A DNA stretch of 56,644 bases, from IMG/VR virus record IMGVR_UViG_3300043080_000590, positions 322,386 to 379,029 of that record; one strand, written 5' to 3'. The notes below the pieces were generated by a model that worked only from the letters and a program-made list of their open reading frames with translations, was not told the DNA's origin and searched no databases. Each line of letters opens with the position of its first letter. Position 1 is the stretch's first letter. A program made the translations under genes and the position numbers. Source of the DNA: a virus. Its lineage: Duplodnaviria; Heunggongvirae; Uroviricota; Caudoviricetes. Shown here one piece after another: positions 3,127 to 56,644 of this stretch.

Positions 3127-3624
3127 TTGGCAAAAAATGATTTTTATTTACCAGTAATTGATTCGTGGTATCACGGTGAATTTGATTATACTAATAATTG
3201 GGAAACTGCTTATGATATTGAATACAATAATTATGTATTAGCTAAATTCCCTAAAAACAATAAAAGACAACCAAAGGATAAATTGAGAAAAGATTTTTTT
3301 ACAAAGTTAGTATGTACTAATGAAAAAAGAGTACGTGATATTGTTGGAGGATTATTCGTTGAACAAGAAGTTGAATTTGAATATGCAAAAAAAGGAATAA
3401 GCTGTTTTGTAAATAGATTGGAATATCGCAAACAAAAAAGAACTATTATTGTTAATAAAAGATTTTTTATAGGTCATATTCCTTTTTCAAAAACTGCTTT
3501 AATAAAAAATAATAAAAACAATATTAAAGAAATAGAGATTTTTGATATAAAAGAAAAATATAAAAATCAAAAAGCAATAATAATTAAAATAGAATTTTTA
3601 GAAGGAGTAAAAATAGATGGCTAA
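3127..3624 (+). CDS. Hypothetical protein
   Basis: TTG start with AGAGGAGG RBS, downstream of consensus promoter, overlaps gyrA start. Confidence 0.7.
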   Translation: MAKNDFYLPVIDSWYHGEFDYTNNWETAYDIEYNNYVLAKFPKNNKRQPKDKLRKDFFTKLVCTNEKRVRDIVGGLFVEQEVEFEYAKKGISCFVNRLEYRKQKRTIIVNKRFFIGHIPFSKTALIKNNKNNIKEIEIFDIKEKYKNQKAIIIKIEFLEGVKIDG

Positions 3625-3973
3625 GAAAAAAGAAAAAAAAGTCGATATTGACAAAATGTTAGCCAATGAGGTAGTTTATGACGTACCTATAGCAAAAACA
3701 ATAAGGAACTCAACATTGAATTATGCTATGTCAGTTATTACAGATAGAGCTTTACCTGATGTAAGAGATGGTTGCAAACCTATACAAAGAAAAGTCTTGT
3801 ATGCAACTTATGTAAAGAAGATATTTCCTAATTCAAAGTTTACAAAAAATGCTGAAATCGTAGGTGAAGTAATAGGTAAGTACAGTCCTCACGGTGATAC
3901 GAGTACTTATGGAGCTTTAGTAAATTTAGCTCAACCTTGGAATACAAAATATCCATTAATAGATTTTCATGGT
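3617..3973 (+). CDS. gyrA: DNA gyrase/topoisomerase IV subunit A, exon 1
   Basis: DRALPDVRDGCKPIQRK, GKYSPHGD, YPLIDFHG. Confidence 0.9.
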
Positions 3974-4350
3974 AGACAATGATTTTTAATAAAAGATGTA
4001 ATTATATCTTGAAAAATTTGACTTAGTTAAAAATTATGCCGTTCTAACTGAAGCTGTCAGGTAGGTTAGAACTATGAGTGCGAAATGAAGCTGGGAGGGT
4101 TTAGTCATCCTAATCAGAAATTTTGAAGGCTATATTTAAAAGTATGGTCAAAGGCAACGCATAGAGAATGAACCTTAAATGCGAGTTTAAGAATATAATT
4201 TCTCCAAGAGGTCGCACTAACGGACAGTACAATAACAGAGCTTATTCGTGTTAAAAAGTTATGCTATACTGAATATGAATTGACATATTGATGAAAATGA
4301 GAGAAATCTCCAGAGATATAGATAAAAAGCTATATGATAAAAACAGATAG
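3974..4350 (+). mobile_element. Group I intron (377 nt, no ORF) in gyrA
   Basis: Exon ends in U and intron ends in G; removal gives HG|NSGNFDGDQYAAYRYTE; P3 GTGCGA/TCGCAC; P7 GCATA/TATGC. Confidence 0.88.
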
Positions 4351-18531: not shown

Positions 18532-18963
18532 TGACTGTTCTTGCTTAAAAAAACTAACCTATGTATAAAAAATATACATAAAGCAAGAATTAGCTCGCTA
18601 TTATAGAAATATAATAGGCAAAGTGTGACAAGAATCTGGGAAAATTTGGTTATTTCAATCAGAACGGAAGTATAATTTTAAAAGGTTATACACGTACAAC
18701 GCATAGAATTGAACCATCATTTATAAATTATGAATGATGAATATAATATTCCACGAGGTCGCACCACGAATACATAAAGGGTATTCTCAAATAGAAGTAG
18801 CTTCACTATTTGACCTAACGTAAAAACGAGGGTGAAAAGCTATGCTGAACTGAGTATGAATTGACATACGATAGATACTAATACACAAGCGTTCTCTATT
18901 AGTATTGAAGAATGTAATGTTCCAGAATTAAGGGATAAAAAGCCTTTAAGATAACAAAAATTG
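18532..18963 (+). mobile_element. Group I intron (432 nt, no ORF) in clpX
   Basis: Junction T|AT rebuilds [14 protein letters not shown]; U at 5' site, terminal G; P3 GTGTGAC/GTCGCAC; P7 GCATA/TATGC. Confidence 0.9.
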
Positions 18964-41372: not shown

Positions 41373-42458
41373 ATGGATGTACGTAATATTATAAATAAAA
41401 AAATACACTCTTTGGAAGAAATAAAATATTTTACAGCGAATTATGATTTTTTTAATGAATTAAATATTCATATTCCAAAATGTTCTTTTAGTGAAGAAGA
41501 ATTAAAATTTATAGTAAGCAATTTAAATTCAAGACAGTTGGAGTTGAGAATTGTTCATGCTCATTTAGAAGATGATGATAATAATTTTTCGTATGCTATG
41601 CAAACATTTGTGGAGAAATTTAAATATAGATATAATACTAATATTGATTTTAAAGAGCTTGTAGAGTGTATGGTGGATAATAATATAAATCTGTATGACA
41701 AGTACACAGCAATGAATTTTATCATAGACTTCTATGATTTTTTATCTGCTGAGTATTTAAATAAAATTGTCAAAAAAATTTTGATAAACTTTAGCGAATT
41801 TACAGATTATAAATATCTTAAATTTATACTTATTTTAAAAGACGAAGATTTTGATTTTCTATTAAAACATAACGCACGGTTGCAATCGTTTTGTAATGAT
41901 GTAGCATTTTTTGAAATATTAAAATCAATTTCAAAAGGTTTGCATTATGGTGAAACATATAGAGATATAAATGTGAGGACAATATTTAGACTTTTTGAGT
42001 ATTCAAAGAAACATTATTCTGTTTCTTCCAATAAAGATGTATATCTTTATTTGTTAGACAGAGTTATGTATGCACAAGATGCTGAAATTTTGAAGAAGAA
42101 TCATAAAGAAGTATTTAAGAAAATTGGGCAAGTAATATCTTTGTCATTAGAGTATCAAAGAATGGGAGATATAATGTTTTTTAAAAATAATTTTTTCTTG
42201 AATAATGAATGTTATAGTTCCAAAAGAAGAAATGAAAAAAGAACGTGTTTTTATAGATTTTTAAATATTATGAGTGAATTTTTATCAGAAAAAGATGAAC
42301 TTAAAATACTTAAATCTTTAAGATACAAATACTGGGGTTATGACAATTATGAAATAAAAGAATTATATAAAAATTGTAAGTTTAGTCATGCTGCTTCAAC
42401 AAAGTATTTGAGAACACAAGTTTTTTTACTTAAATTAAATGTAGATGCGAATGTTTAA
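41373..42458 (+). CDS. Helical paralog family member
   Basis: C-terminal RFLNIMSEFLSEKDE...YLRTQVFLLKL. Confidence 0.65.
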   Translation: MDVRNIINKKIHSLEEIKYFTANYDFFNELNIHIPKCSFSEEELKFIVSNLNSRQLELRIVHAHLEDDDNNFSYAMQTFVEKFKYRYNTNIDFKELVECMVDNNINLYDKYTAMNFIIDFYDFLSAEYLNKIVKKILINFSEFTDYKYLKFILILKDEDFDFLLKHNARLQSFCNDVAFFEILKSISKGLHYGETYRDINVRTIFRLFEYSKKHYSVSSNKDVYLYLLDRVMYAQDAEILKKNHKEVFKKIGQVISLSLEYQRMGDIMFFKNNFFLNNECYSSKRRNEKRTCFYRFLNIMSEFLSEKDELKILKSLRYKYWGYDNYEIKELYKNCKFSHAASTKYLRTQVFLLKLNVDANV

Positions 42459-42504
42459 AAATCCTTTATTTTTTTGTATAAGAAAAAAGATAGGAGGATT
42501 CATT

Positions 42505-45048
42505 ATGAAGAATTTTGTACATTTGCATACACATTCTGTGTTTTCATTATTAGATGGATTAACAAAAGTAGAAGATATGGTGGATAAAACACTTAAGCTT
42601 GAATTGCCTGCTTCTTGTATAACAGACCACGGAAATATGTATTCTTTTGTAAATCATTTTAAATATGCAGAAGAAAATGGTCAAAAACCAATAGCAGGCT
42701 TTGAAGCTTATGTTGTAAATGATTTAACGGTAAAAAATAAAGACGAAAAAAGAGAGCATTTAGTATTATTAGCTAAGAATAATGATGGCTATAAACAAAT
42801 GTCTAAAATATGTAGCATTGGTGCTACGCAAGGTATGTATTACAGACCACGTATTGATGACAAAATAATGCAAGAAGTTGGCACTGAGAATCTTATTGCC
42901 AGTTCTGCTTGTTTTCTTATGAATACCGATGTAATAACAAAACGTGGTATAAAACCTATACAAAATGTCACAGAAGAAGATTATGTTCTTACGCACTTAG
43001 GAAGATATAAAAAAGTTAATAAATCATTCAGTATGTTGTACAGCGATGATATTTATAATATACGTTCAAATAGTTTTCCTATCAATTGCACCAAAGACCA
43101 TAAATTCTTAGTCGTTAAAGATAATAATGTTGAATGGAAGGAAGCACAAGAATTAACTGAAAATGATTATTTGCTTCAAGTTGTAGAAGATACTGTTGAT
43201 AAGTTTGAAGAATTAGATGTATCTTTTCTTAAAAAACAAGGAAAGTTAAAAAGTTATACAATAAAACTCACTAATGAATTTTTAGAGTTTTTGGCAATAT
43301 ATTGTGTAATGGGAATAGATTCAAGTGCTGCCGTATCTTTTATTGTTGATTGTGAAAATATTTTATTAATAAATAAAATTACAACGGAATTAGAAAATTT
43401 AGTAAATATTCCATTTACAATAGTAAACAACTTAGAAAAAAAACAAGTAGCAATAACTATTTGTAGTGAAGAAGTAAGTAGTTTATTAAGGTATTTGATG
43501 GGAAGTAATGTTATTAGTAATTCTAATTCTAAAATGCTCCCAGATATTATTAAATGGTTATCTTTTGATAAACAATTGTTTTTTTTAAAAGGGTTTATAA
43601 TAAATAATAGTTCTTTTGAAGATGGTAAAGTAAGTGTGGTATTATATTCTAAACAGTTATATTATGATATATCTCATATGCTTGCTAGATGTAACGTATC
43701 ACATACGGTTGAAAGTCAAAATAGATATATTGATGACTTAGAGTTTTTACATAATGCTACTTTTACTGTAACTATTGAGGACGAAGATTTTATAAACTTT
43801 TTATACAATGGTGAAAGTTTTAGATTAAAGCATTTTTTTGAAGTTGATGGAGTAAAATATATAAAGAATAAAATCCAATCAATAACTGCAAATTGGGCAG
43901 AATTAAACGTATATTGTTTGGAAGTAGATGAAGATTCTTCTTTTGTAGCTAATAATGTAGTTACACATAATTGTCTTGCAGGTAGAATACCTAGGTGCTT
44001 GCTAAAAGACGATATAGAAAAGGCTGAATACTGGTGTAAGCATTACGCTCAAATGTTTAAAAATAGCTTTTATTTGGAAATACAACCTACTGAGATACCC
44101 TCACAGGTAAAAGTAAATAAAGGGTTGATTGAACTAAGTAAAAAATTGGGCATACCTTTAATAGCAAGTACGGATGCACATTATTTAAATAAAGAGGATA
44201 AAGAAACTCACGATGTGTTGCTTTGCTTGCAGACTAAAGATTTATTAAGTAATCCTAATAGATGGACTTTTGAAGGTAACAGCTATTATATAATGTCTTA
44301 TGAGGAAATAATAGACGCTTTTAAAAAGAATGGTCATGAAGAATTAGACCAAGATGCTGTATTAGAAGCAATTCATAATACAGTTGATGTAGCTAAACAA
44401 TGTAATGTTCATATTGATTTTGGTAAACATTATTTGCCTAAAATAGAACCACCTAAAGATGATGACAATTATAATAAGCAAGTAGAAAAAAAATTAAAAA
44501 GAGATAAAAATTTTAAAAGTGATGATGCTTCATATTTAAGATATTTATGTTTGCAAGGATTAAAAAGGAAATTGCCAGACCTTGACACAAACCTTGAAAA
44601 AAGAAAAATCTATTTAGATAGATTAAATCACGAATTAGAAGTAATTGAAACAATGGGTTTCCCATCTTACTTCTTAATAGTTGCAGATTATATTAACTAT
44701 GCAGATAAAGTTGCTAAAATGGGCGTAGGTCCTGGTAGAGGTTGCTTTACTCCTGATAATTTAGTTAATACTGAAAATAGAGGGTTAGTAAAAATTGCAG
44801 ATGTAATTGTAAATGATTTGATAAAAGGTCATGATGAAAAAACTCATAAAGTAATAAATACTTTAAATTATGATTGTGATGAAGAAGTCTTGCAAATATT
44901 TTCAGAAGATGGTAAATCACTTACACTAACAAAAGACCATAAATTATTTGCTATCAAAAAAGAGGATTTTGATAAAGGGATAAGAACTCCTCAGTGGTAT
45001 GGAGCTGATGAATTAAACGAAAATGACTATATAGCCGAATTAGAATAA
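42505..45048 (+). CDS. dnaE: DNA polymerase III alpha subunit, N-terminal gene (PHP domain, cis-intein, ends in split intein N-half)
   Basis: FVHLHTHSVFSLLDG, ITDHGN, STDAHY, ELEVIETMGFPSYFLIVADYI, GPGRG; RBS AGGAGG before ATG 42505. Confidence 0.93.
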   Translation: MKNFVHLHTHSVFSLLDGLTKVEDMVDKTLKLELPASCITDHGNMYSFVNHFKYAEENGQKPIAGFEAYVVNDLTVKNKDEKREHLVLLAKNNDGYKQMSKICSIGATQGMYYRPRIDDKIMQEVGTENLIASSACFLMNTDVITKRGIKPIQNVTEEDYVLTHLGRYKKVNKSFSMLYSDDIYNIRSNSFPINCTKDHKFLVVKDNNVEWKEAQELTENDYLLQVVEDTVDKFEELDVSFLKKQGKLKSYTIKLTNEFLEFLAIYCVMGIDSSAAVSFIVDCENILLINKITTELENLVNIPFTIVNNLEKKQVAITICSEEVSSLLRYLMGSNVISNSNSKMLPDIIKWLSFDKQLFFLKGFIINNSSFEDGKVSVVLYSKQLYYDISHMLARCNVSHTVESQNRYIDDLEFLHNATFTVTIEDEDFINFLYNGESFRLKHFFEVDGVKYIKNKIQSITANWAELNVYCLEVDEDSSFVANNVVTHNCLAGRIPRCLLKDDIEKAEYWCKHYAQMFKNSFYLEIQPTEIPSQVKVNKGLIELSKKLGIPLIASTDAHYLNKEDKETHDVLLCLQTKDLLSNPNRWTFEGNSYYIMSYEEIIDAFKKNGHEELDQDAVLEAIHNTVDVAKQCNVHIDFGKHYLPKIEPPKDDDNYNKQVEKKLKRDKNFKSDDASYLRYLCLQGLKRKLPDLDTNLEKRKIYLDRLNHELEVIETMGFPSYFLIVADYINYADKVAKMGVGPGRGCFTPDNLVNTENRGLVKIADVIVNDLIKGHDEKTHKVINTLNYDCDEEVLQIFSEDGKSLTLTKDHKLFAIKKEDFDKGIRTPQWYGADELNENDYIAELE
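42910..43971 (+). mobile_element. Cis-splicing intein (354 aa) with degenerate LAGLIDADG domain
   Basis: SSA|CFLMNTDV...TKDHKF...VYCLEVDEDSSFVANNVVTHN|CLAG. Confidence 0.92.
44743..45045 (+). mobile_element. Split intein N-half (101 aa)
   Basis: GRG|CFTPDNLV...LTKDHKLF...ADELNENDYIAELE then stop; acidic. Confidence 0.9.
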
Positions 45049-45073
45049 GGTACTCCTTGGGGAGTACCTTTTT
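45047..45073. terminator. Strong bidirectional terminator after dnaE-N
   Basis: AAGGTACTCC/GGAGTACCTT perfect stem plus T run. Confidence 0.85.
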
Positions 45074-46061
45074 ATGTTAGTTTTATTAACATAGCAAGAT
45101 TTTTTAATGTCTTATTGTTATTTTTTTTTGCCAATGATAATAATTGTTTTTTTCTATGTGTCCTTATATTTTCAAAACTATTATTTGTTTCATTAAGTAA
45201 TCTATCAATACAAATATTTTTTTGTCGGTCTGTAAGAATATTTTCAAAAAATAAAATCATACTTATATAATAAAAGTAATCATTATGTTTTTCTACAATA
45301 ATATCTTTTACACAATCAGAAAAATCTACATTCTCATATTCCCTTGTATGAAACAAGTATAAATTTATTCTTTTAAAATAAATGTTTAAAATTCTTTTTC
45401 TGAATTTATCAGGAACATTCCAATTAATTAAACATTCTTTTATTTCTGAATTTTTCATACCACAAAATATATTACAAATAAATATTTCATCATTTTTAAA
45501 CTCAGTATATTTTAAAAACATATCATATAAATCATATTCTTTTATAATATGCGGTGTGTTATTATTCTTTTTTATACCATAAGTTGAAAAGAAATTTAAT
45601 ATATTTGTTCTACTTTTTATTTTTTCTTCAAGTGTTAATACTTTTATTTTATTTATAATAAGATAAGCAAGTTTTTGTACAAAATTTTCAAACAGCTCTT
45701 TTTTCATATACCAAGCCGATAATGCAGACATACAAAAATTACACTCATAGATACTTAATTCATTAATCTTATTTAATAAAAAGTCAAAAAAAGAATTTTC
45801 TGAAATAATATGATTTTTTCCAAATAATTCTACATCAAAATAGAGTTGATAATAAACTTCCATTTGTTCAAAGAGTTTAAGTAAATCTTTTCCACTTATA
45901 TATTTGTTTAGTAATTTACAAAATTCTTCTTCTGGCAATTTTTCCACCAATGATAATAAATAGCGTTTTTTATGAAAATTCATATTATCTTGAATAATAT
46001 TATTTAATTCTTCCTTAGTATATATTTTTTTTAAGTTATTTTTATCATCCATTACAAACAC
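45072..46061 (-). CDS. Helical paralog family member
   Basis: C-terminus TLKNLAMLIKLT; same size and composition as the family. Confidence 0.6.
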   Translation of the reverse strand: MFVMDDKNNLKKIYTKEELNNIIQDNMNFHKKRYLLSLVEKLPEEEFCKLLNKYISGKDLLKLFEQMEVYYQLYFDVELFGKNHIISENSFFDFLLNKINELSIYECNFCMSALSAWYMKKELFENFVQKLAYLIINKIKVLTLEEKIKSRTNILNFFSTYGIKKNNNTPHIIKEYDLYDMFLKYTEFKNDEIFICNIFCGMKNSEIKECLINWNVPDKFRKRILNIYFKRINLYLFHTREYENVDFSDCVKDIIVEKHNDYFYYISMILFFENILTDRQKNICIDRLLNETNNSFENIRTHRKKQLLSLAKKNNNKTLKNLAMLIKLT

Positions 46062-46182
46062 CCTTCATAATAACAGTTAAAAGGCTGTATTTTTATCATA
46101 TAAGGGTTTGTTTGATTTGTGGTATAATTCTTTGCCTAAAAATAAAAACGTCTTATAATTGAAAATACAGCCATTATTTAGT

Positions 46183-47253
46183 TTAACCTATTTTTGAAGC
46201 AACAACATTTCTTATATGCTTCATATCAACAAGTGTTATATCACATCTTCTTTTTGTGAAAGATTCAATGTATTGTAATTCTGCAACATTATTACAAAGA
46301 ATAGCTTTATCAAGAATCCTTTTAAGGTAAAGGTTAAAAGCGTATCTAGGAACTCTATCACCTAAGTTTACAATCAAGTTAATGCACATAATGTAATTAC
46401 AGTTATTAAGACAACCACTACGTTCCAATGCCTTATAAATAAGACTTTTTTCTTGTGAAGTAAGATGAGAAGCATCTGCTTTTCTAAAAGGCGTACAAGA
46501 AAGATATCTTATAATTAAATTGATATCAGTAGTTGGAAGTAAAATTGATGTACTTGGCATCTTTGCTAAGAAATTATCATTTACATCAGCAGGGTTTCTT
46601 AAAACCATATTAACAAGTCTTGGCATATTATGAAAAATGTAATTAACATCCTTATCATCAAGAAGTAATATGAAATTCTTTATCTTTGCTTCGCTATTAG
46701 TATCTATACCATTTTGTGTACATTCTGCAAGGAACAAGTCAATAACCTGTATTAATATATTTCTGCTCATATATTCATTGCAGTAAGTAATTGTATCGCA
46801 AAGGTTTTCTACCTGATTTTCTTTTTTGCAATAGAAAACTATGAAACTATATATAGCTTTCCAAACTTGTTCTGTGTCCTGATTTACAATTCTTTCAAGT
46901 GCTTCAATAAAAGCGATACCATTATTCCTTAAAATATTATTAAGTTCTGTATAACTAAGCTTATTTGCAATTAAGTTATAAACCTGAGTGCCAGTAATAA
47001 CTTGAACTTTTTCAAGTGTGTTTGCAATGATATATTCGTTATTTGTGAACAATTCATTCAAAGCACTTGAAAGTTCATTATTAGTTGTTGCTGAATTTAT
47101 TTTATTAAGAATGGTTACATCATATTCACTAATTACTGAATAAGAGTTTTTTGGTTCTACTACATTAGTAGTAGTTTCGTCATAATCATTATAAGCTGTG
47201 TTGTGATTTACAAGGCTCTTAAAATTACTTACTATTTTCTTAAAGTTCAACAT
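46183..47253 (-). CDS. Helical protein, possible distant family member
   Basis: 356-aa ORF with RBS AAGGAGG and promoter at 47305-47333. Confidence 0.6.
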   Translation of the reverse strand: MLNFKKIVSNFKSLVNHNTAYNDYDETTTNVVEPKNSYSVISEYDVTILNKINSATTNNELSSALNELFTNNEYIIANTLEKVQVITGTQVYNLIANKLSYTELNNILRNNGIAFIEALERIVNQDTEQVWKAIYSFIVFYCKKENQVENLCDTITYCNEYMSRNILIQVIDLFLAECTQNGIDTNSEAKIKNFILLLDDKDVNYIFHNMPRLVNMVLRNPADVNDNFLAKMPSTSILLPTTDINLIIRYLSCTPFRKADASHLTSQEKSLIYKALERSGCLNNCNYIMCINLIVNLGDRVPRYAFNLYLKRILDKAILCNNVAELQYIESFTKRRCDITLVDMKHIRNVVASKIG

Positions 47254-47304
47254 ATTTATATCCTCCTTAAAAGTGTGTTTGTGTTTTCTTTATTTTATGT
47301 TTAT

Positions 47305-47456
47305 ATTATACTATGTTTTTTATAATTTGTCAAGCTTTTTTTCTAAAAAAATGAAATATTTTTAAATTTGTAACACAAAAAGAGTTATAATTATAATTTT
47401 ACAGTTACAACTTTTTCAAAAAAAGTATTGACAAAACATAAAAAAAGTAGTATAAT
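47305..47456. promoter_or_regulatory. Divergent sigma-A-type promoter pair flanking the palindromic site at 47360-47401
   Basis: TTGACA-17-TATAAT at 47333-47305 (-) and 47428-47456 (+). Confidence 0.75.
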
Positions 47457-47517
47457 ATAATCACAGAAATAAAAAAGTACACATTACACAATATTAAATA
47501 ATAAAGGAGGATTTTAT

Positions 47518-48003
47518 ATGTATGGTATTTTTTTAAAGAATGAAGATGGCGAAGAACTTAATTATAGGACACTTAAAACATATTTAAACGCAGCTAAACC
47601 TAAAAACCTTTACAATTATGTTATGGAAAAGACAAATGGTTTTGTATTCTATTCTATATCATTTTATGCAGATGTTTTTAAACAAGGTAAGGTTGATAAG
47701 CGTAAAATGAGAAAAGATTTACTGGATATGTTGATAATTGGTAACACTCTTAATATTGACATAAATAATATGAACCTTAGAATAAATGGAGAAGAAGATT
47801 TTGTTAAGCTGTATAAATCTAATTGTTTAACTCTTGAAGATATAACAAGAATTTATGAAGCAGTTGAAAAATACTATCCTGATTATTACTATCGTTTGTG
47901 GGAAAGATTAAGATTTGAAAATAAGGAAGATGCAGAACAGTTTATTTCTATTGTACAAGATTATTGTACTTATCCTTTGTATGCAAAAGGTAATTGTTAT
48001 TAA
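47518..48003 (+). CDS. Hypothetical protein
   Basis: RBS AAGGAGG and consensus promoter. Confidence 0.7.
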   Translation: MYGIFLKNEDGEELNYRTLKTYLNAAKPKNLYNYVMEKTNGFVFYSISFYADVFKQGKVDKRKMRKDLLDMLIIGNTLNIDINNMNLRINGEEDFVKLYKSNCLTLEDITRIYEAVEKYYPDYYYRLWERLRFENKEDAEQFISIVQDYCTYPLYAKGNCY

Positions 48004-48183
48004 GAATAAATCAAGAAAAAGGGATTATAAAAAATCCCTTTTTTTATGAAATATTTTTCTATTTTCTTGACAAATAGCTATGTTTTGTTGTATAATAATA
48101 TCATAATTAAATTAAACTATCAATTTACTTTATTATTAAAAAGGATGATAAAAACTAATTTTATAAAAACAGGAGCGATGAAA

Positions 48184-49047
48184 ATGAATACAATTAACAT
48201 TGATGAAGTTACGGACGGACAAGTAGTTGTTATAGATGCCATTTTAACAAACTTAAATTTAGTAAAAGCAAAAAATAATAGTTTATTTATTTCAGGAACA
48301 GCTTCAAATAGTAATATGAGTATACCTATAAAAATTTGGAATACTGATGAAGCTACCCTCAATATATTAAAAGATATAAAATTCATTTCTTTGTTAGGAA
48401 CAGTAAGTGTTTATTTGGGAGCAAAAAGTCTTATAGTTTCAAAATATAAAAAAATAAAAGATTATCAATTAAGTGATTTTATCCCTACATATAAAATAAC
48501 AGAGGATAAAAAACAATTTGTTTCTGATGTTATTGATAGTATAGAAACAGAAAACTATAAAAAACTTTTATCCGAACTAATAACAAAGGAATATTATAAA
48601 TTATCTTGTTCAATTTTTAAGTATAATAAACATAATGGTAACTTTGAATACATATATGATTTACTTAACACAGCATACGCATTGTTAAATAATAGTTCTG
48701 AATTGTATTCAAATATAAACAAAGAAGCAGTATTAACTGCTTTATTACTTTGTAATATTGGTAGTCTTGAAGCACAAAAATATGATGAATATTTAATTGC
48801 AGAAGATTTAACAAAGACGGGGAAATTATTAACAATACCTATTTTATCTTTAATGAAAATTATAGAAACTTGTAATAAGTTAGATATAGATATAAAATCA
48901 GAAGATATAATTTCATTAATATCTTTAATTGTAAGTAATAATAATGGAAAGCCTGCCAATTTAAAAGATGTACAGTTCTTCAGACAAATAGTCTATCTTG
49001 TAGAAAGTTTTTGTAAAATGGAAACTTCAATTTCAGATGTAAATTAA
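48184..49047 (+). CDS. YhaM-like OB+HD protein with degenerate HD motifs
   Basis: Collinear with 49672; LLCNIG for LHDIG, SNNNG for SHHG; start inferred from AGGAG RBS (track start 48046). Confidence 0.7.
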   Translation: MNTINIDEVTDGQVVVIDAILTNLNLVKAKNNSLFISGTASNSNMSIPIKIWNTDEATLNILKDIKFISLLGTVSVYLGAKSLIVSKYKKIKDYQLSDFIPTYKITEDKKQFVSDVIDSIETENYKKLLSELITKEYYKLSCSIFKYNKHNGNFEYIYDLLNTAYALLNNSSELYSNINKEAVLTALLLCNIGSLEAQKYDEYLIAEDLTKTGKLLTIPILSLMKIIETCNKLDIDIKSEDIISLISLIVSNNNGKPANLKDVQFFRQIVYLVESFCKMETSISDVN

Positions 49048-49070
49048 AAAAGAGAGGGTTAATCCCTCTC

Positions 49071-49352
49071 TTATTCATCATCAATATTATTATGTAATTC
49101 ATCCATCATTTCGAAAAAAGTTGGTATTTTTTCTACCTGCTCTATTTTTTCTTCTTTGTTAGTATAAGCTATTATCTTACAAGCAAAAATAAAACATATA
49201 ACGCTTGCAGCAAATACTATTAAAGACATTGATATTCCTAGTTCTAAAAATCCATAACAACTGGCAATAGCCAAAAACAAAAAAGAACTAAAACTTCCTA
49301 TTGTACCTGCAATAATCATTGTTATTGCATCTCCTGCTTCGTATTTTTTCAT
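49071..49352 (-). CDS. Small membrane protein (2 TM)
   Basis: Two hydrophobic helices. Confidence 0.65.
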   Translation of the reverse strand: MKKYEAGDAITMIIAGTIGSFSSFLFLAIASCYGFLELGISMSLIVFAASVICFIFACKIIAYTNKEEKIEQVEKIPTFFEMMDELHNNIDDE

Positions 49353-49525
49353 GTTTCTACCTCCGTGTTCAAATATAACAGAATCTTATCTAAACAAGTA
49401 GTTGTGTTTATTGTACAGTCTTTTGTTATTATATCATAGCAAGCACAATGTTCACAAATTAACTTGGTTAGTGTTGTTGCCATTTCTGTAACGCTCATAT
49501 TCTGTATGCTTTCGTAATTTGTCAT
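49349..49525 (-). CDS. Small Cys-rich phage protein (58 aa, not in ORF track)
   Basis: MTNYESIQNMSVTEMA...CEHCAC...; promoter at 49572-49544; stop overlaps the next ATG. Confidence 0.65.
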   Translation of the reverse strand: MTNYESIQNMSVTEMATTLTKLICEHCACYDIITKDCTINTTTCLDKILLYLNTEVET

Positions 49526-49671
49526 TTTTTTCTATCCTTTCACATTATACTACATTTTTTAACTTTTGTCAACAAATATATTTTTTATAAATATTATTTA
49601 ATAAAACTTATCCTTTCTTATATAATAGAAAAAATAAAAAAATAAAAAATTTCAGAAAGGAAGTTTAAATT

Positions 49672-50655
49672 ATGGCAAAATTAAATACGTTTGAAATATC
49701 TAAATTACAAAAAGGTGATACAGGAATTGTTGACCTTATTATAGGTAAAGTTGAGTTGAAGGAAAGAAAAAACAATGGTGGTTTATTTATAGATGGTTAT
49801 GGCTCTAATACAAATATTCCACAAGTTAGATTTAAGTGTTGGGATGAAATTACAGAAACTATGTTTAATGAGGTATTTAAAAAGATAGGTGCTATAAGAA
49901 TTAAATATCGCTGTGATGAATTTAATGGAGAAAAATATTTGAATGTTTTTCAATATGAAGATATAACAAATGAAGCTTGTGATATTGATGGTCTTATTCC
50001 ACAGAGTAAAATATCTGCTGAAAACTTAAAGAAGTATTTTCATAGTGTTGTTAGCAAAATGCAGACAGAAAGTTATCAAGCAATAATAAATGAATTATTA
50101 GTAGATGAGTTTTTTGAAATGGGTGCTGCACTTTCTTGTCATCATAACAGAAGGGGTGGTTTAGCGGAACACACTTATCAAGTATTAAGTGCTGCTAAAT
50201 CTATAATTGAAAGAGATAGGTCTGAGGTTTACAATATAATAAACACAGATTTATTATATGCTGGTTGTATATTACACGATATAGGTAAATTAAAAGAACT
50301 TCACGCAAATTGCTTTGGAATAATTGATGAGTATACAACAATAGGAAAAACACAAGGACATATAAACATTGGTGTGACTATGATAAATGAATGTTGTGAT
50401 AAATTAGGCATTGATAAGTATTCAAAAGAAATTATGTTATTAAATCATTTGATGCTTTCACATCACGGTAAAGAAGAATATGGAAGTCCTGTTAAACCTA
50501 AAACATATGAAGCTATGTTGTTAAATATATATGATAATTTAAGTGCTAAAGCAGATGCGGCAAAAAATGTAATAGATAAGACGGCGAATGGTGATTGGAG
50601 TAGTAAAGTTTTTGCATTAGATAATGTACAATTATTTAATCATATATCAGAATAA
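49672..50655 (+). CDS. yhaM: YhaM/CBF-like 3'-5' exonuclease (OB + HD)
   Basis: HHNRRGGLAEHT, LHDIGK, GHI, LSHHG, YDNLSAK. Confidence 0.85.
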   Translation: MAKLNTFEISKLQKGDTGIVDLIIGKVELKERKNNGGLFIDGYGSNTNIPQVRFKCWDEITETMFNEVFKKIGAIRIKYRCDEFNGEKYLNVFQYEDITNEACDIDGLIPQSKISAENLKKYFHSVVSKMQTESYQAIINELLVDEFFEMGAALSCHHNRRGGLAEHTYQVLSAAKSIIERDRSEVYNIINTDLLYAGCILHDIGKLKELHANCFGIIDEYTTIGKTQGHINIGVTMINECCDKLGIDKYSKEIMLLNHLMLSHHGKEEYGSPVKPKTYEAMLLNIYDNLSAKADAAKNVIDKTANGDWSSKVFALDNVQLFNHISE

Positions 50656-50688
50656 AAAGTAGGGTGGATTTAAATATCCACCCTTTTC

Positions 50689-51072
50689 TTAAACTGAATC
50701 ATTTTCTATATTATATGTGTTTTGTAAATAAGTTAGATGTTCTATACATTTAGTTAATGCTTCTAATTCTGTATTTCCATATCCATATATATTTATTTTT
50801 GCATTGTCAACTGTCGTTATAATGTACTCACACTTCCAAATATAATTTTCTATTTCTGTATATGCGTTTTTACAATTAACTGATATTTTGTATTCTTCAT
50901 CTGCCTGCGACCAAGGTGAATTAATAAATAAAGCCCATTGTTGCATATCTTCTTCTGATAATTTTTCTTCGTTTTCATAATAGAAATTTTTAAAATCATC
51001 AGTATAATAGTTTTCTTTTTTCATATAGTCAAAACTACCTGCTAAATACTTTTTCATTATCTCATCTCCCAT
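50689..51072 (-). CDS. Hypothetical protein
   Basis: ORF downstream of the minus-strand promoter at 51105-51077. Confidence 0.6.
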   Translation of the reverse strand: MGDEIMKKYLAGSFDYMKKENYYTDDFKNFYYENEEKLSEEDMQQWALFINSPWSQADEEYKISVNCKNAYTEIENYIWKCEYIITTVDNAKINIYGYGNTELEALTKCIEHLTYLQNTYNIENDSV

Positions 51073-51159
51073 TTTTATTATATCATATATTGCTTATATT
51101 GTCAAATTGTTTATTGACAAATAATAAAAATTATAATATAATATAGTTGAGGTGATTAT

Positions 51160-52257
51160 ATGTATCTTAGAACTTGTTTAGGTTTGGGCAATTTTATGGA
51201 AAGCAATTTAGAAACAAGTAATAATGTTGTTAATAATTTGAGTTATTTTAAAAATAAATGTATAGATATATTTACTCTTATAAATTATTCTCCAATTCCA
51301 TTAGAAGATGTTTATGATTTTTTGATACACTCCTCTTTTAATAATCTGAGTTGGTCACGCAATTGGGGAATTGATTATTATTATGTTAATGATTTCTTTA
51401 ATAGTATTCAAAAAAAGATAACACTTGTTTATATGCACGAAACAGACCATAGCTTTTATCGTAACGTTTTACAAAGAGAAAAGGCTGAGAAATGGTTCAA
51501 AAAATTTGATGAAAAATGTTTGGAAAAAGTAGGTAGAACATTTACACAGATTTTAAATGATTGTATTGCTAATATGCCATTAAACGGCACGACAAATATG
51601 CTAGTATATTATTTACTTGCTAAAATCGGACCTACATACATATCAAAAGAGAACATAATAAGATTGTTTGAAAGAATGATGGTTGTAGATGCAGATAGTA
51701 AGTTTACAAAATATAAAGAAAGTGGCTATACATTGTTTGAAGATTTCTTGGTTATTAATATTATAGAATATTTAAAAAACTATCCTGAATATTTTATCCC
51801 TTATTTAAAAAACAATAATGACAGCTTTGGCAAATACATAAGATATAGCCCAGATAAATTTAATATATTTTCTTTTGCAGAAATAATAAAGGCTAATGAT
51901 GAAATGTATGAGATATTTTCAAATAAACATTGCCAGACAGCAATTTTTTGTAAATTAGTTAAAGAAACAAATGATTTGATTATAAAGTATAAAGAAGATA
52001 TAAATAAGCTTCCTATTGAAGAAAAAGAACTTAAAAAGCATATACGAACAGGAAAAGTTGATTTGCTTGTAAAATATTTATTACTTCAAGACAACATATC
52101 GTTAGAAAGAGAAAAGAAACTTATAGAATTGCTTCTTAAATATAAAAAGACATTTACACTGGAAAAGATTCATTATGTAATTGATAATTATAATTGTGTT
52201 TATGAAGAAAATTCTCATATATTAAAAAAATATTTAATGATTTGCAAGTTAAGGTAG
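51160..52257 (+). CDS. Helical paralog family member
   Basis: C-terminus IDNYNCVYEENSHILKKYLMICKLR; promoter at 51114-51142. Confidence 0.65.
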   Translation: MYLRTCLGLGNFMESNLETSNNVVNNLSYFKNKCIDIFTLINYSPIPLEDVYDFLIHSSFNNLSWSRNWGIDYYYVNDFFNSIQKKITLVYMHETDHSFYRNVLQREKAEKWFKKFDEKCLEKVGRTFTQILNDCIANMPLNGTTNMLVYYLLAKIGPTYISKENIIRLFERMMVVDADSKFTKYKESGYTLFEDFLVINIIEYLKNYPEYFIPYLKNNNDSFGKYIRYSPDKFNIFSFAEIIKANDEMYEIFSNKHCQTAIFCKLVKETNDLIIKYKEDINKLPIEEKELKKHIRTGKVDLLVKYLLLQDNISLEREKKLIELLLKYKKTFTLEKIHYVIDNYNCVYEENSHILKKYLMICKLR

Positions 52258-52353
52258 AGTAAAATCTACCTTTTTTTATTGCAAAAAATTAAAAAAAATA
52301 TTTTTTCTTTATATATAAAGGCAAATATACAAAAAAGGAGTGTGAAAGAACAA

Positions 52354-52548
52354 ATGAAATTTACAAGAATTGTAAGAAAGAAATATCAACAGTATAAAGG
52401 TAAGGTTTATGATTTAACTGTTGAAGATAGTCATTCTTACAATATTGATAATTTAGTGGTTCATAATTCGGGTGCAGGTTCTTTAGTTTGTTATGCAACA
52501 GATATAACTAAAGTGGACCCCATTGAGTATGACCTAATTTTTGAGCGT
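52354..52548 (+). CDS. dnaE: dnaE C-terminal gene exon 1: split intein C-half (38 aa, 52354-52467) plus extein
   Basis: MKFTRIVRKK...VYDLTVEDSHSYNIDNLVVHN|SGAGSLVCY...DPIEYDLIFER. Confidence 0.92.
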
Positions 52549-52886
52549 ATGTCTGCTTAAAATGCGTTCGTTAAACTGGGTGAATTGTCGGGAAACTCCT
52601 TAGAGTTTAAGAATACTAACTTATTACAGCAATGTAGTAAGGGCAAAAAGTAATGTTGGAGATATAGTAAGTAAGTTCTTAAAATTGGACAATCCGCAGC
52701 CAAGCTTCTAAAAGCACATAAAAGTATAGAAGAAGGTTCAACGAATAGAGAGTGATAAGTGCGATAAATAATCTCTCCAAGAGTGCCCAGTGGATAATAT
52801 TCTAAGGAGTATTATCTAATGATATATTCTATACTATATGGAAACATATAGAAGTAAATGATAAACACATTTACGATAATAAAAAG
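52549..52886 (+). mobile_element. Group I intron dnaE-I1 (338 nt)
   Basis: AATCCGCAGC, GTTCAACGAATA, P7 GAATA/TATTC, U 5' site, terminal G. Confidence 0.88.
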
Positions 52887-52916
52887 TTTTTAAATAAAGA
52901 CAGAGGAAAACTGCCT
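52887..52916 (+). CDS. dnaE: dnaE 30-nt micro-exon (FLNKDRGKLP)
   Basis: Rebuilds FER-FLNKDRGKLP-DIDADF, same length as canonical FERFLNPERVSMPDID. Confidence 0.9.
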
Positions 52917-53263
52917 AAACAATATTGGGCATTAAAAGTGAACTTAAAAAGGTGTGCTTAATATTTAAGTGCTAACGGTAAAAGTTAAATAAGACTATCT
53001 ATTGAAGCCTTACAAGGAGATAATAGGTGTATGATTTATAATCATAGGTAGAATATACTTCTACAGACGAAATAACTTTCTAAGAGAGTCTAAGGTGCTT
53101 TTAAAGCATAGCTGATAATACCGTGTCTTTAATAAGATGTAACGACTATCCATTTATTTGGAGTACCATTATAAAATGGGAAGTGCTTTTATGCAAAATT
53201 GTTTATATAAAATTGTTTTGTAAAGATATAGTCTGATGTTATAGGAAACTATAAATAATAATG
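52917..53263 (+). mobile_element. Group I intron dnaE-I2 (347 nt)
   Basis: P1 UGCCU/GGGCA with U.G, P10 AAUAUU/GAUAUU, GTAACGACTA, AAGATATAGTC. Confidence 0.92.
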
Positions 53264-53724
53264 GATATTGATGCAGATTTCTGTATTTATGAAGGTGATA
53301 AAGTATTTGATTATTTAAATAATAAATATGGGAAAAATCACTGTTGTAATATTATTACTTTCCAAAGATTACAAACTAAAGCAATAATAAAAGATTTAGC
53401 AAGGGCTTTGGAAGTAGATTTTAGTGAAGTAAATAAATTTACAGCATCTATACCTGATAAAATTGATGATAAAGATGTACATATAAAAGATTTGGTTGAT
53501 AATCCTCAATTTTCTTGGTTTTTTAATAAATATCCTGTTATTAAGAAACACGCTTTAAAATTAGAGGGATTACCTAAATCAACATCTCAACATCCTGCTG
53601 GTATTGGTGTTGTACCTTGCGAAATAACTGACTTAGTACCTGTTATTCCTGCAAAGGAAACAGCGAGTGGAATGAAAACATATTTATCATCTTTTGAAAA
53701 GGAACAAACTGAACAAATGGGTGT
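53264..53724 (+). CDS. dnaE: dnaE C-terminal gene, internal exon
   Basis: DIDADF (catalytic Asp residues), KDLARAL, GLPKSTSQHPAGI. Confidence 0.9.
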
Positions 53725-55901
53725 AAACATAACTGCACCCGTAAAAGTGGGTTATATGCTGGAAACTGCTTAGAGCCTTTATGCACCTACAATATTTTGT
53801 GTTTATTGTAGTCGAAACAGTTAAAGGATTGCACAATCAGCAGGCACGATAAGGTCCGCCTCAGAGACTATGAGAATATCTCAGGTATATAATGGTGACG
53901 TTATATATCAACCCCACTAAATAGAATTTATTTCTATGAATGATATAGTCCAGACTGAATATGAATTAACATATTGTAATTCTATGTGGTAATGTCGCAC
54001 ATAGGATAATGACTGAGAAGTCCAGAACATAAGCAGAAATGACTTATGATTTATTATTAAAAGGTATATAAATTTTAAATGATATAAAATAAATAAAGAT
54101 AGTCATTCTCCCCAAATGGCTATCTTATATAAAATTAATAAATAATATTATATTCTTTTAATTTGTTTTTTACTAATTCAGGAGTTAAATCTTCATCATA
54201 TCTAACTCTAATTAAAGTTATATTGTGCTCTTTGCATAATTTATCTTTTAATTTATCTTTTTCTTGTAAATTTAAAAGACTGTTTTCTTCTTTGTTATAA
54301 AAAGAAACTTCCTTAAAATGTTGTTCACCATCATATTCTATTGCTAAATTATATTTTTCAAAATAACCGTCTAAATATAAATTGCAACTTGTTTTAGGAT
54401 TTTTTAACCATGTAAATGTTTTTTCAGTTTGAGCAATAATTTTTAACTCTTGTTCAAACAAATATATGCAATATAACCCAATATCAGAAACTGAATTTCC
54501 ATTTGTTGCAACATTTACAATATTTAATTTATCGCATATTCCTTTTATGTTGCCAAATCTATGTAAATATGTAGGTCTTGAATATTTTGTTTCTTTTTCT
54601 AAAATAACCGTATTTATAGTGCCAAACTTATTAGCCAATTCTTGCAACTCTGCTAACAATTCTTCGTCTGATACACTTGAAGCATAGTTGGGTTTTAATC
54701 CCATTTCCATTAACATATTTGAAAACGAACCAAACATATTTTCAACATTAGTTTGTGTTATATATCCATCTTTTCTTTGAATTGTTGTATTTAATTTTTC
54801 ACCATTAGCATAATATAACTTCCACATATGCTCAATAATTTCTTCTTTTGTCTTTTCTATTCTATTTCCCTTAAATAACCCTAACTCCTGTACAGCCTTA
54901 CTAAAACTGCCAAAAAGTTTTGTTACTATATGTTGTGAAATACCTGTTTTTCCATAAAACTCATTAGCTGTAAATTTTTGTTTATTGTTTTTTTCATAAA
55001 AATCAATTATTTTATTAGCAATTTCTTCTTTTGTAATATGAGAAGTTTTAGGATGGTTTACCATTTTTATTTTCATTGTTGTATTATAAAGGTCTATCTT
55101 TTTTAAAAAATTTCTAAAACTACCATATTTTTCTAAAAAAGTTTTTTTATGTATTTTTGTTTTTTGAAAAAATAATTTAGAAGTAACAGTACCTTCTTCT
55201 TTAAGTATTCGTAGTGCTTCGTTTTTACAAAACTCATCATCAAAATCTTTTATTTGTGACGGTCTAATTTTTCCTGCGTTTGATTTTTTCTTGTCATTTA
55301 TTATTTTTTGTTTATCATATAATCCTATTTCTTTTAAAAAACAAATAAAAGAATTATTAAACATTTTCATAAAAGTAGGTTTATGAAAATTTGTATATTT
55401 AAGAAATTTTTCTTTAGTTATTTCGCCTTCTTTGTTAAAAAATTCATAAGCTTTTTCTTTTGTTTCTTCTTTCGTAAAATCATATATTTTATTGCTTTTT
55501 CTTTTTTGACATTCGTATTGCTTTTTTGCTAATTTTGCTTTTGTTTCTTCTGAATGCGAAAAATGTTTATTACCTATTAAAGGGAGTTCTCTTTCGAAAT
55601 TTATATCTATAATATTTTCTTTTGAACATTCCATTAAAGCATACTTAAAGGATTTAAAATGTGTTTTAATTTCTTTTAACTTAAAATTACCCTCACATTC
55701 ATATATTTCCCTGTTAATAAAGCCATTTTTTTGATATATATATAATATATCATTTAAAATTTCTTGTTTGATTTGTGTTTCATCATTATTTTGATTCATA
55801 AATCAAACTCCTTTCTTATTTTTTATATTTGAATAAAGTTGGGGAACTTTATTCTCTTTAATATATAAAAAAAATAAGAAACAATAAATATAATATTTGG
55901 G
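53725..55901 (+). mobile_element. Group I intron dnaE-I3 (2177 nt) carrying an antisense endonuclease ORF
   Basis: P1 GGGUGU/GCACCC and P10 UAACU/GGUUA; AATCAGCAGG, TCAGAGACTA, GATATAGTC; splicing gives EQMGVVKFDIL. Confidence 0.88.
54135..55799 (-). CDS. Putative homing endonuclease: NUMOD3-like motif, about 6 helical repeats, C-terminal DUF559/Vsr-like nuclease
   Basis: HSEETKAKL; repeats ending FGSF...LG/L; LYLDGY...LAIEYDGEQHF...KDKLC...LIRV; own RBS AAGGAG. Confidence 0.8.
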   Translation of the reverse strand: MNQNNDETQIKQEILNDILYIYQKNGFINREIYECEGNFKLKEIKTHFKSFKYALMECSKENIIDINFERELPLIGNKHFSHSEETKAKLAKKQYECQKRKSNKIYDFTKEETKEKAYEFFNKEGEITKEKFLKYTNFHKPTFMKMFNNSFICFLKEIGLYDKQKIINDKKKSNAGKIRPSQIKDFDDEFCKNEALRILKEEGTVTSKLFFQKTKIHKKTFLEKYGSFRNFLKKIDLYNTTMKIKMVNHPKTSHITKEEIANKIIDFYEKNNKQKFTANEFYGKTGISQHIVTKLFGSFSKAVQELGLFKGNRIEKTKEEIIEHMWKLYYANGEKLNTTIQRKDGYITQTNVENMFGSFSNMLMEMGLKPNYASSVSDEELLAELQELANKFGTINTVILEKETKYSRPTYLHRFGNIKGICDKLNIVNVATNGNSVSDIGLYCIYLFEQELKIIAQTEKTFTWLKNPKTSCNLYLDGYFEKYNLAIEYDGEQHFKEVSFYNKEENSLLNLQEKDKLKDKLCKEHNITLIRVRYDEDLTPELVKNKLKEYNIIY

Positions 55902-56262
55902 GGTTAAATTTGACATACTTAAATTAAAAAATTGCTCTACGTTAAGAATTATGGTTAAAGAAATAAATAAGCGTTACAATTTAAATTTAACAGAAGATAA
56001 AATACCATTAGATGACAAAAAAACTTGGGATTTAATTTCAAGTGGTAAAACTTTAGGTGTATTTCAGTTCGCTTCTCCATTAGGAATAAGTACTGTAAGA
56101 AAAATGCACCCTGCAAATATTGAAGAATTAGCAGCAGCAACATCATTCATTAGACCTGGTTCATCAGGACTTGATAGTTATATGAAAGGTAAAGATGATG
56201 CTACAAAAGTTGCTAAAACTGATAAAAGATTAGATAAATGTTTAAAGTCAACATATGGAGCT
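55902..56262 (+). CDS. dnaE: dnaE C-terminal gene, internal exon
   Basis: VKFDILKL, TLGVFQFAS, IEELAAATSFIRPG, STYGA. Confidence 0.9.
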
Positions 56263-56644
56263 AAAATAGCATAATTGGTTCGTAAATGAGTAAACTGACG
56301 GGGAATTCCTTAGAGCTTTATATACCAACTTATTATAGCAATGTAATAAGGGCAATGAGTAACGTCAAAGGTATGGTAAAAAATATAAAGATTGGATAAT
56401 CCGCAGCCAACTACCTTTTTTGAGGTAGGGGTTCAACGACTATGAGAATATCTCAAATATATAATAGTAATGTTATATATTATCCTCATTATTAAATTTG
56501 TAAAAATTTATAAAGATATAGTCTGAACTGTGAATGAATTGACATTCAAAAGTCTTTAATTATAAAAATATGCTAATCCTGAAAATAATTAAAGAAGCGT
56601 TGAAAAACCCAGAGTTAGGCAGAAATGCCCTAACCAATAATTAT
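56263..56644 (+). mobile_element. Group I intron dnaE-I4 (3' end beyond the window)
   Basis: P1 GAGCU/GGUUC with U.G, AATCCGCAGC, GTTCAACGACTA, AAGATATAGTC; interrupts TYG-x-I-x-YQEQ. Confidence 0.85.

Follow-up and report, generated by a model that had tools for sequence, protein, structure and literature searches.

A phage DNA polymerase III cistron that appears to have been colonised by four mobile IA-like group I introns

The replicative polymerase of the virus in IMG/VR record IMGVR_UViG_3300043080_000590 is a Pol III alpha subunit (DnaE) that is coded by two cistrons, dnaE-N and dnaE-C. Analysis of a 56,644-nucleotide (nt) stretch of this virus (the window, to which all coordinates refer unless stated, and which corresponds to positions 72349-128992, read on the minus strand, of a 224-kb virus record from a gut-type metagenome) indicated that dnaE-C has very probably been colonised, independently, by four mobile phage group I introns of the IA-like class (I1-I4). 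These introns separate five exons (E1-E5), the second of which is a micro-exon of only ten codons. Relatives for comparison were found by tblastn of the joined exon product against viral and metagenome collections and are designated by the locus labels L009, L035-L038 and L056-L058, while L053 denotes Bacillus phage G (NC_023719). Megablast of the region against a phage collection gave no match.

Exons were derived from stop-to-stop reading frames and the raw sequence. Pfam profile positions run unbroken over all four junctions, which are 52548/52887 (FER/FLN), 52916/53264 (LP/DID), 53724/55902 (codon split GT/G, giving ..MGV/VKFD) and 56262/56670 (TYGA/IVFQEQ). Because PF07733 stops in E1 and restarts in E3 (Table 1), the gap of 10 profile positions between them corresponds to the micro-exon. 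The five joined exons form a frame of 987 amino acids (aa) with zero stops, and no stop codon occurs inside any dnaE exon when table 11 is used. Residues 7-986 of this product align to the single uninterrupted open reading frame (ORF) of L009 with 57% identity and are gapless at every junction, and E4 is colinear also with L058. The micro-exon has the counterpart FLNPDRGHLP in L009, while L037 encodes the same ten residues in a 30-nt exon at the identical position with an intron on either side. D401 and D403 of Escherichia coli Pol III alpha are matched in alignment by the first and the third residue of E3, so I2 lies at a codon boundary immediately before the catalytic DxD motif. In addition, E3 is matched by five database clusters of stand-alone ORFs (170-193 aa), which suggests that relatives are interrupted on both E3 flanks. 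A preliminary description of this DNA had proposed that the exons rebuild DnaE motifs and that a 30-nt micro-exon sits beside the catalytic aspartates. All four boundaries proved exact by Pfam continuity and the gapless L009 alignment, and Pfam, L009 and the E. coli alignment agree that the micro-exon ends just before the aspartates.

The same description had reported four group I introns, with good P1 and P10 pairings for I2 and I3 and a good P1 for I4. This was upheld by splice sites, P1/P10, the P3-P9 core and covariation in all four introns; a script that tested helix pairing from P1 to P10 confirmed the pairings named, and those of I1 are good as well. Each 5' splice site follows a U that forms a U.G pair with the guide, and all four introns end in G. 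P1 comprises 6 base pairs (bp) in I1 (GAGCGU/GCGUUC) and I3 (GGGUGU/GCACCC) and 5 bp in I2 (UGCCU/GGGCA) and I4 (GAGCU/GGUUC, including two G.U pairs). P10 comprises 6 bp with a one-nucleotide offset in I1 (UUUUAA/UUAAAA), 7 bp in I2 (GAUAUUG/CAAUAUU) and 5 bp in I3 (GGUUA/UAACU). The agreement between splice sites and guide pairing is far above chance expectation.

The core is canonical and fully paired in all four introns (P3, P4, P5, P6/6a, P7, P8, P9 and extensions), and several P9 extensions or other helices end in GNRA loops. Pairing is complete for P3, P4, P6a, P7, P7.1, P8, P9 and P9.1 of I1, for P3-P9.2 of I3 and for P3-P9.3 of I4. P7 has its bulge and G-C pair in every case: A[C]GAAUA/UAUUCU in I1, A[C]GACUA/UAGUCU in I2 and I4, and G[A]GACUA/UAGUCC in I3. 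Extra helices P7.1/P7.2, which covary, lie between P7 and P3' in all four, while I3 and I4, like I1, lack P2. By the P7.1/P7.2 hallmark, I1-I4 are predicted to be IA-like (IA2-like phage) group I introns. Unconstrained minimum free energy (MFE) folds regain many of these helices, and most of P3-P9 in I2, with z = -3.2 for I1 and -2.4 for I2.

Table 1. Coordinates of the dnaE cistrons, their exons, introns and inteins, and the intron-borne gene.
Feature	Coordinates	Strand	Description
dnaE-N	42505-45048		PHP domain, full-size intein, PF07733 start, Hint N-part
Split-intein C part	52354..52467	+	38 aa, end ..VVHN; first segment of dnaE-C
Exon 1	52354-52548, extein part 52468..52548	+	SGAGSLV...DLIFER, final base U; PF07733 to position 92
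I1	52549..52886	+	338 nt, ORF-less, phase 0, without P2
Exon 2	52887..52916	+	30-nt micro-exon FLNKDRGKLP; PF07733 positions 93-102
I2	52917..53263	+	347 nt, ORF-less, phase 0
Exon 3	53264..53724	+	DIDADF...EQMGV; PF07733 positions 103-252 (of 260)
I3	53725..55901	+	2177 nt, phase 2; predicted ribozyme core in first ~325 nt
Homing endonuclease gene (predicted)	54135..55799	-	554 aa, antisense to dnaE, own ribosome-binding site
Exon 4	55902..56262	+	VKFDILKL...STYGA; finger domain; PF17657 positions 3-113
I4	56263..56669	+	407 nt, ORF-less, phase 0; 3' splice site 25 nt beyond window
Exon 5	56670-58568	+	IVFQEQ..; PF17657 positions 115-164; beyond window, from genome sequence
Mini-intein	extended window 56970-57480 (locus L051, minus strand)		GYSFNK/C...VVCN/SHAVCY

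Profile searches of the whole genome with RF00028 reported I4 with 41.3 bits (E 3e-10) and, within I2, its 3' portion (P7-P9, 53221-53253, 21.8 bits), as well as two other introns above the cut-off (52.6 and 51.7 bits). For a covariance model, R1, only the 3' domain of I4 was used, since P8 fell out of register in a two-sequence alignment of I3 and I4 (A3). R1 matched I3 at 87.5 bits, I1 at 52733-52850 (16.9 bits) and I2 at 53134-53254 (16.4 bits), and the I1 and I2 coordinates equal the hand prediction to within one base. It also found 15 further places, in introns of relatives and in other genes of the same genome; recA, clpX and phage G introns are among its matches. In the resulting 18-sequence alignment, 92.6% of cells are paired, versus 59% after shuffling and 32-47% when partners were slid, with both-side changes in 31 of the 33 pairs and a G-C pair at the G-binding position in 17 of the 18 sequences. 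The slid-partner control and hand checks argue that this covariation is not an artefact. Whole-core MAFFT alignments (A1, A2) misaligned the 3' halves and were not used for pair counts. Covariation extends to the exons: P1 of I3 is GGGUGU/GCACCC here, GGGGAU/GUCCCC in L056 and GGGGU/GCCCC in L036; position +6 of the I2 P10 is U-A here and A-U in L038; and the I1 P10 is UUUUAA/UUAAAA here and UCUC/GAGA in L035.

Several observations weigh against four functional introns. P10 of I4 is weak (~2 bp), and an unusual hairpin between P3 and P4 of I2 makes its P3 register ambiguous. The register accepted, UAAAAGUG/UGCUUUUA, rests on two relatives, L037 and L038, in which it covaries as UGAAUAU/AUAUUCA, and on the MFE fold, which concurs. 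An initial P3 for I2 (AAGUGCU/AGUGCUU, with a P2 hairpin ahead) was dropped, as it has no complement in L037/L038. None of the four introns reached the RF00028 gathering score of 50 bits, a curated cut-off rather than a property that defines group I introns, and I1 and I3 were unreported by that model; the Rfam group I model is incomplete and may miss phage introns (PMC11878797). Likewise, cmscan gave no group I match in the whole window at the gathering score, nor in 42000-56644 and loci L003/L007 at E values up to 10. This blank is a filter effect and not evidence of absence, since RF00028 was matched in the genome profile search. I1 and I2 have weak E-values with R1 (0.2-0.25), the 18-sequence alignment was fitted to R1 and is thus biased toward structure, and transcription of I3 must pass a 1.7-kb gene on the opposite strand.

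Spliced joints were also absent from two gut metatranscriptome runs mapped to 42000-56644, in which only 6-10% of sampled words were present and which yielded four contigs each. One contig (53628-53909, one run) crosses the E3/I3 junction unspliced, and could be precursor RNA or carried-over DNA. Both runs contained the interior of I4 (56311-56612), and the remainder were short off-target pieces and the E3/I3 piece; the intron-only contigs could represent stable excised intron RNA or, again, carried-over DNA. The two metatranscriptomes neither show nor refute splicing.

All four sites are occupied in some relatives and vacant in others. L009 (DnaE 57% identical) has no introns. Among the more distant relatives, L035 (about 49%) has I1 only, ORF-less; L038 (about 47%) has I2 only; L037 (about 47%) has an I1 with a LAGLIDADG gene in its P8 loop, the 30-nt micro-exon and I2; and L036 (about 48%) has an I1 with an ORF and an I3 with an antisense ORF of 537 aa. 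The closest, at 74-80% identity over E1-E3, are L058, which has I2 and an ORF-less I3 and an empty I4 site, and L056/L057, which have I2, an ORF-less I3 and an I4 with a sense HNH_repeat gene. Homologues at the I1 site are thus seen in L035, L036 and L037, and at the I2 site in L037, L038 and L056. Every intron type is known with and without an endonuclease gene across the relatives and phage G. Presence and absence at identical sites, together with intron-borne endonuclease genes, mark these as probably mobile introns, and the mosaic is a signature of independently mobile, dispensable elements.

From the observed exons, folds and occupancy mosaic, we infer catalysis and homing along the following lines. 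The anatomy suggests that dnaE-C would be transcribed as a single precursor, in which each guide would pair with the last 5-6 exon bases as P1 and bring the U.G pair to the point of cleavage. The conserved G-C pair of P7 would bind a free guanosine, which would then attack the 5' splice site, and P10 and the terminal G would position the 3' exon for ligation. After four such reactions the sequence that codes for palm and finger would be whole again, with the 30-nt exon in place before the catalytic DxD, and three protein splicings, one of them in trans, would complete the polymerase. Homing endonucleases would presumably target the most conserved DNA, that is, the coding sequence of the active site, and clustering at conserved sites is the expectation from such target choice (PMC3984707). 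I1, I2 and I4 may have lost endonuclease genes of the kind borne by same-site homologues.

The occupancy mosaic bears directly on whether the introns are kept as a joint regulatory gate, in which four GTP-dependent splicings and the protein splicing precede replication and skipping of the micro-exon is the off state. We regard this as quite improbable, even though the interruptions all cluster in the catalytic palm and finger region, skipping of 30 nt would preserve the frame, and the introns of the genome mainly interrupt genes of replication and recombination (gyrA, recA, dnaE). There is also precedent in print for exon skipping and for a GTP-sensing 'on-switch', the latter proposed for other phage introns (PMC11878797; Twort, as cited in PMC3073962). 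However, relatives with 47-80% identical DnaE hold any subset of the introns, and one holds none, so the set is not a conserved functional unit; the clustering is already predicted by endonuclease target choice (PMC3984707). Moreover, the I1 P10 guide UUAAAA cannot pair with E3 and the I2 P1 guide GGGCA cannot pair with E1, and guides so unrelated disfavour skipping of the micro-exon. The timing gate on replication suggested in the preliminary description is unnecessary as an explanation of the introns and fits the mosaic poorly, given that each site is empty in some relative and that L009 lacks all four introns; a modulatory side effect of the introns is possible.

I3 differs from the other three introns in its size and in the gene it carries on the opposite strand. 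The predicted product matches PF18780 HNH_repeat (E 1e-16), phrog_9084 'homing endonuclease' (E 6e-13) and phrog_559 (E 8.5e-9), with a weak DUF2726 match below the Pfam cut-off; phrog_559 has a VSR-fold signature and has been reported in terminase introns (PMC11878797). The motif IEYDGEQH, of the E-x-D-G-x-x-H type expected of Vsr-like/EDxHD endonucleases, is readable in the sequence and conserved in L036, and solved structures queried with the sequence of the C-terminal domain returned only noise. The gene probably encodes an intact homing endonuclease, putatively Vsr-like. Over 544 aa it shares 32% identity (E 7e-59) with the antisense ORF of the 2057-nt L036 intron, which shows that the orientation is conserved where DnaE is only ~47% identical. 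A scan for sigma-70 promoter and terminator patterns did not outperform shuffled controls, and no promoter that the antisense gene could use emerged. The HNH_repeat kind of endonuclease occurs in both orientations in different introns, antisense in I3 here and sense in the I4-type intron of L056 (L056:7583-8704), a 301-kb relative in which the gene encodes 373 aa.

Comparison with the compact ORF-less homologue at the identical site (360 nt, L056/L058) locates the inserted endonuclease gene to the loop at the tip of the last P9 hairpin. In L036 this loop is closed by a perfect 12-bp helix. A duplex search for a closing stem in the present I3 found only a weak 7-bp A/U helix (ATTTATT/AATAAAT), and the insertion site was therefore placed by comparison with L056 and L036. 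The last P9 stem lies 12-15 nt from the 3' splice site in all three introns, and the P9-loop placement together with the P10 match points to I3 as one cis-spliced intron. A separate feature of the L036 intron (L036:7490-7510) is that colinearity and a 5-bp P10 put its 3' splice site after ..GACUAAA, with a terminal A; the nearest terminal G would add two residues (TK).

These data also speak to the idea that dnaE-C is simply broken at I3, with E1-E3 and E4-E5 separate and either trans-spliced or assembled as fragments. The 2.2-kb gap with its opposite-strand gene, the unspliced contig over E3/I3 and the I3-type core of phage G, which has no finger exon within 4.3 kb, are all in keeping with it. 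We nevertheless judge it very improbable: the 5' guide of I3 can form 6 bp with E3 and 5 bp with E4, E4 has neither a ribosome-binding site nor a start codon, and the compact L056 homologue, the L036 closing helix and the similar spacing from stem to 3' splice site fit an insertion in the last P9 loop of a single cis-spliced intron. Extremely improbable, finally, is a decaying pseudogene with dead intron relics in a phage that relies on another polymerase, which could account for three of the four introns lacking an endonuclease gene, the RF00028 scores under threshold and the lack of spliced reads in two metatranscriptome runs, but not for five exons that keep open frames and the catalytic DxD, core helices that are all intact with compensatory changes, or guides that match their own exons even where relatives differ.

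In a further, unlikely reading, the I1/micro-exon/I2 module and the I3 antisense-gene intron are functional arrangements, through which the phage would control replication by splicing or attack co-infecting relatives that lack the introns. Both arrangements recur where DnaE is only ~47% identical. If this were true, the 30-nt exon, as P10 partner of I1 and P1 partner of I2, would impose an order on splicing, and, with transcription converging in I3, expression of the endonuclease would be inversely coupled to that of the polymerase.

The introns have affinities with those of cultured phages. The 5' half of I1 is ~70% identical to Staphylococcus phage DNA-polymerase introns and that of I4 is 76% identical to a Twortvirinae lysin-gene intron, and matches to these 5' halves (70-76%) also occur in SPO1-like Bacillus phages, Vibrio phages and PhiPA3. 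The introns of Herelleviridae, for which we compared Twort orf142 (three introns), Bastillevirinae polymerase and terminase genes, and Staphylococcus K-like lysin and polymerase genes, share an IA-like core with P7.1/P7.2, a location in DNA-metabolism genes and the presence of several introns per gene. They differ in that the host gene here is DnaE rather than a family A polymerase, P2 is missing from I1, I3 and I4, and there are four introns per cistron rather than the published maximum of three, which was reported for Twort and Bastillevirinae among cultured phages (PMC11878797). Phage precedents also exist for exon skipping and for a small exon flanked by introns on both sides (PMC11878797).

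A closer parallel was found in dnaE itself. In phage G, gp329 ends in ..GKLP, an intron with the gp330 endonuclease gene follows, and gp331 begins DIDIDF; the first 16 nt of this intron are identical to those of I2. An I2-site intron also interrupts dnaE in Enterococcus phage EF1, whose endonuclease gene bears the annotation 'Phage intron', and in a Staphylococcus SPbeta-like phage. Phage G further resembles the present gene in an I3-type core right after the equivalent of E3 (gp331) and in an intein (..VHN/SAAGSLV) at the site of the split intein described below. These three records have one or two such interruptions and are without I1, hence without the micro-exon, and the I2-type introns of phage G and EF1 carry a sense endonuclease gene whereas I2 here is ORF-less. 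In phage G (241492-243540), gp329-gp331 together are one dnaE broken at the I2 and I3 sites. With no finger-domain exon within 4.3 kb after its I3-type core, the remainder of that gene may lie elsewhere or be very diverged. We found no open-access paper on the dnaE interruptions of phage G, EF1 or the SPbeta-like phage.

More distant comparisons concern single aspects of the gene. The crAss-like Zeta phages are likewise gut-metagenome phages with fragmented core genes (PMC7886860); their major capsid protein (MCP) gene is in five fragments, with as many as 14 introns and 3 inteins in one genome (PMC7886860). They differ in being an unrelated lineage, the present case being a DnaE replicase in a 224-kb genome with exons free of stops by table 11, and their introns were recognised mainly through endonuclease domains rather than ribozyme folds (PMC7886860). 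The Didymium L2066 introns in nuclear ribosomal DNA (rDNA) resemble I3 in having an endonuclease gene in a peripheral loop on the strand opposite the host gene (PMC9548176), but they encode a His-Cys box enzyme in eukaryotic rDNA, in contrast to a putatively Vsr-like one (phrog_559) with a bacterial ribosome-binding site in a phage protein gene. Our literature searches found no phage example of an antisense endonuclease gene within a group I intron. Lastly, the 'fractured genes' of PMC2677866 share a replication gene split at an intein and an endonuclease that, judged by the readable motif IEYDGxxH, may have a similar Vsr-like/EDxHD C-terminal domain. There a single endonuclease gene reportedly separates the halves, whereas the halves here are 7.3 kb apart with ~8 ORFs between them, and the putative Vsr-like gene is within an intron and not between the intein halves.

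The dnaE-C introns are thus a dense example of a known habit, with no new mechanism. One polymerase would need seven removals of selfish elements, four by RNA splicing and three by protein splicing (one in trans), and the cistron has one intron more than the published cultured-phage record. Together with its comparison set it forms a compact natural series in which the homing cycle can be studied at the DnaE active site. Genes of this type are broken up by gene callers into pieces labelled 'hypothetical', phage G, EF1 and the SPbeta-like phage being examples, and the standard Rfam scan misses the introns, so phage replicases in metagenomes are likely under-annotated.

The protein-level interruptions begin upstream of the introns. 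The 3' end of dnaE-N encodes the N-extein ..GPGRG followed by an intein N-fragment, and dnaE-C starts at 52354, 7.3 kb downstream, with a ribosome-binding site (AAGGAG) 13 nt upstream of a start Met that is aligned with those of L035/L036. The first segment of dnaE-C matches the C-terminal end of the Pfam Intein_splicing profile (residues 6-44 of 52336-52548), after which the C-extein begins SGAGSLV. A third intein, a mini-intein in E5 just past the window (CLAGSE..VVCN/S), matches Intein_splicing at E 8e-8, slightly below the cut-off, and is common to L009, L056 and L058; its penultimate residue is Cys instead of the usual His. Two inteins, and at least four RNA-splicing and two protein-splicing events, had been claimed for this polymerase. 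The four introns stand, and the inteins are to be counted as three (a classical one in dnaE-N, the split intein and the E5 mini-intein), giving three protein splicings with one in trans. Both strands of the interval between the split-intein halves (44800-45048 and 52354-52467) carry ORFs, ~8 in total, of which two (48031-49047 and 49669-50655) are paralogous OB-fold/HD-like genes, and L056 also has an HD-domain gene directly 5' of dnaE-C.

The density of introns, which the preliminary description had called extreme for a prokaryotic gene, is exceptional only against cultured phages with their maximum of three; recA of the same genome and the Zeta MCP gene are no less interrupted. It is a property of the genome and not specific to dnaE. 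The recA gene (extended window ~78936-82593; genome C1:46400-50057, locus L052) is in at least five or six pieces, with PF00154 positions 1-49, 49-92, 88-192 and 206-245 in separate frames and an RF00028 or R1 match in every gap. About five group I introns are predicted in these 3.6 kb, more than in dnaE-C, and the missing PF00154 positions 193-205 suggest another micro-exon. A gyrA/parC-like ORF (3617-4400) stops at 3982 (..PLIDFHG) and resumes in another frame near 4351 (..GNFDGDQYAAYRYTE). The gap, which contains an R1 match at 4230-4289 (18.5 bits, E 0.085), is probably a further group I intron. R1 also matched at clpX (18691-18870; 30.4 bits, E 2e-4).

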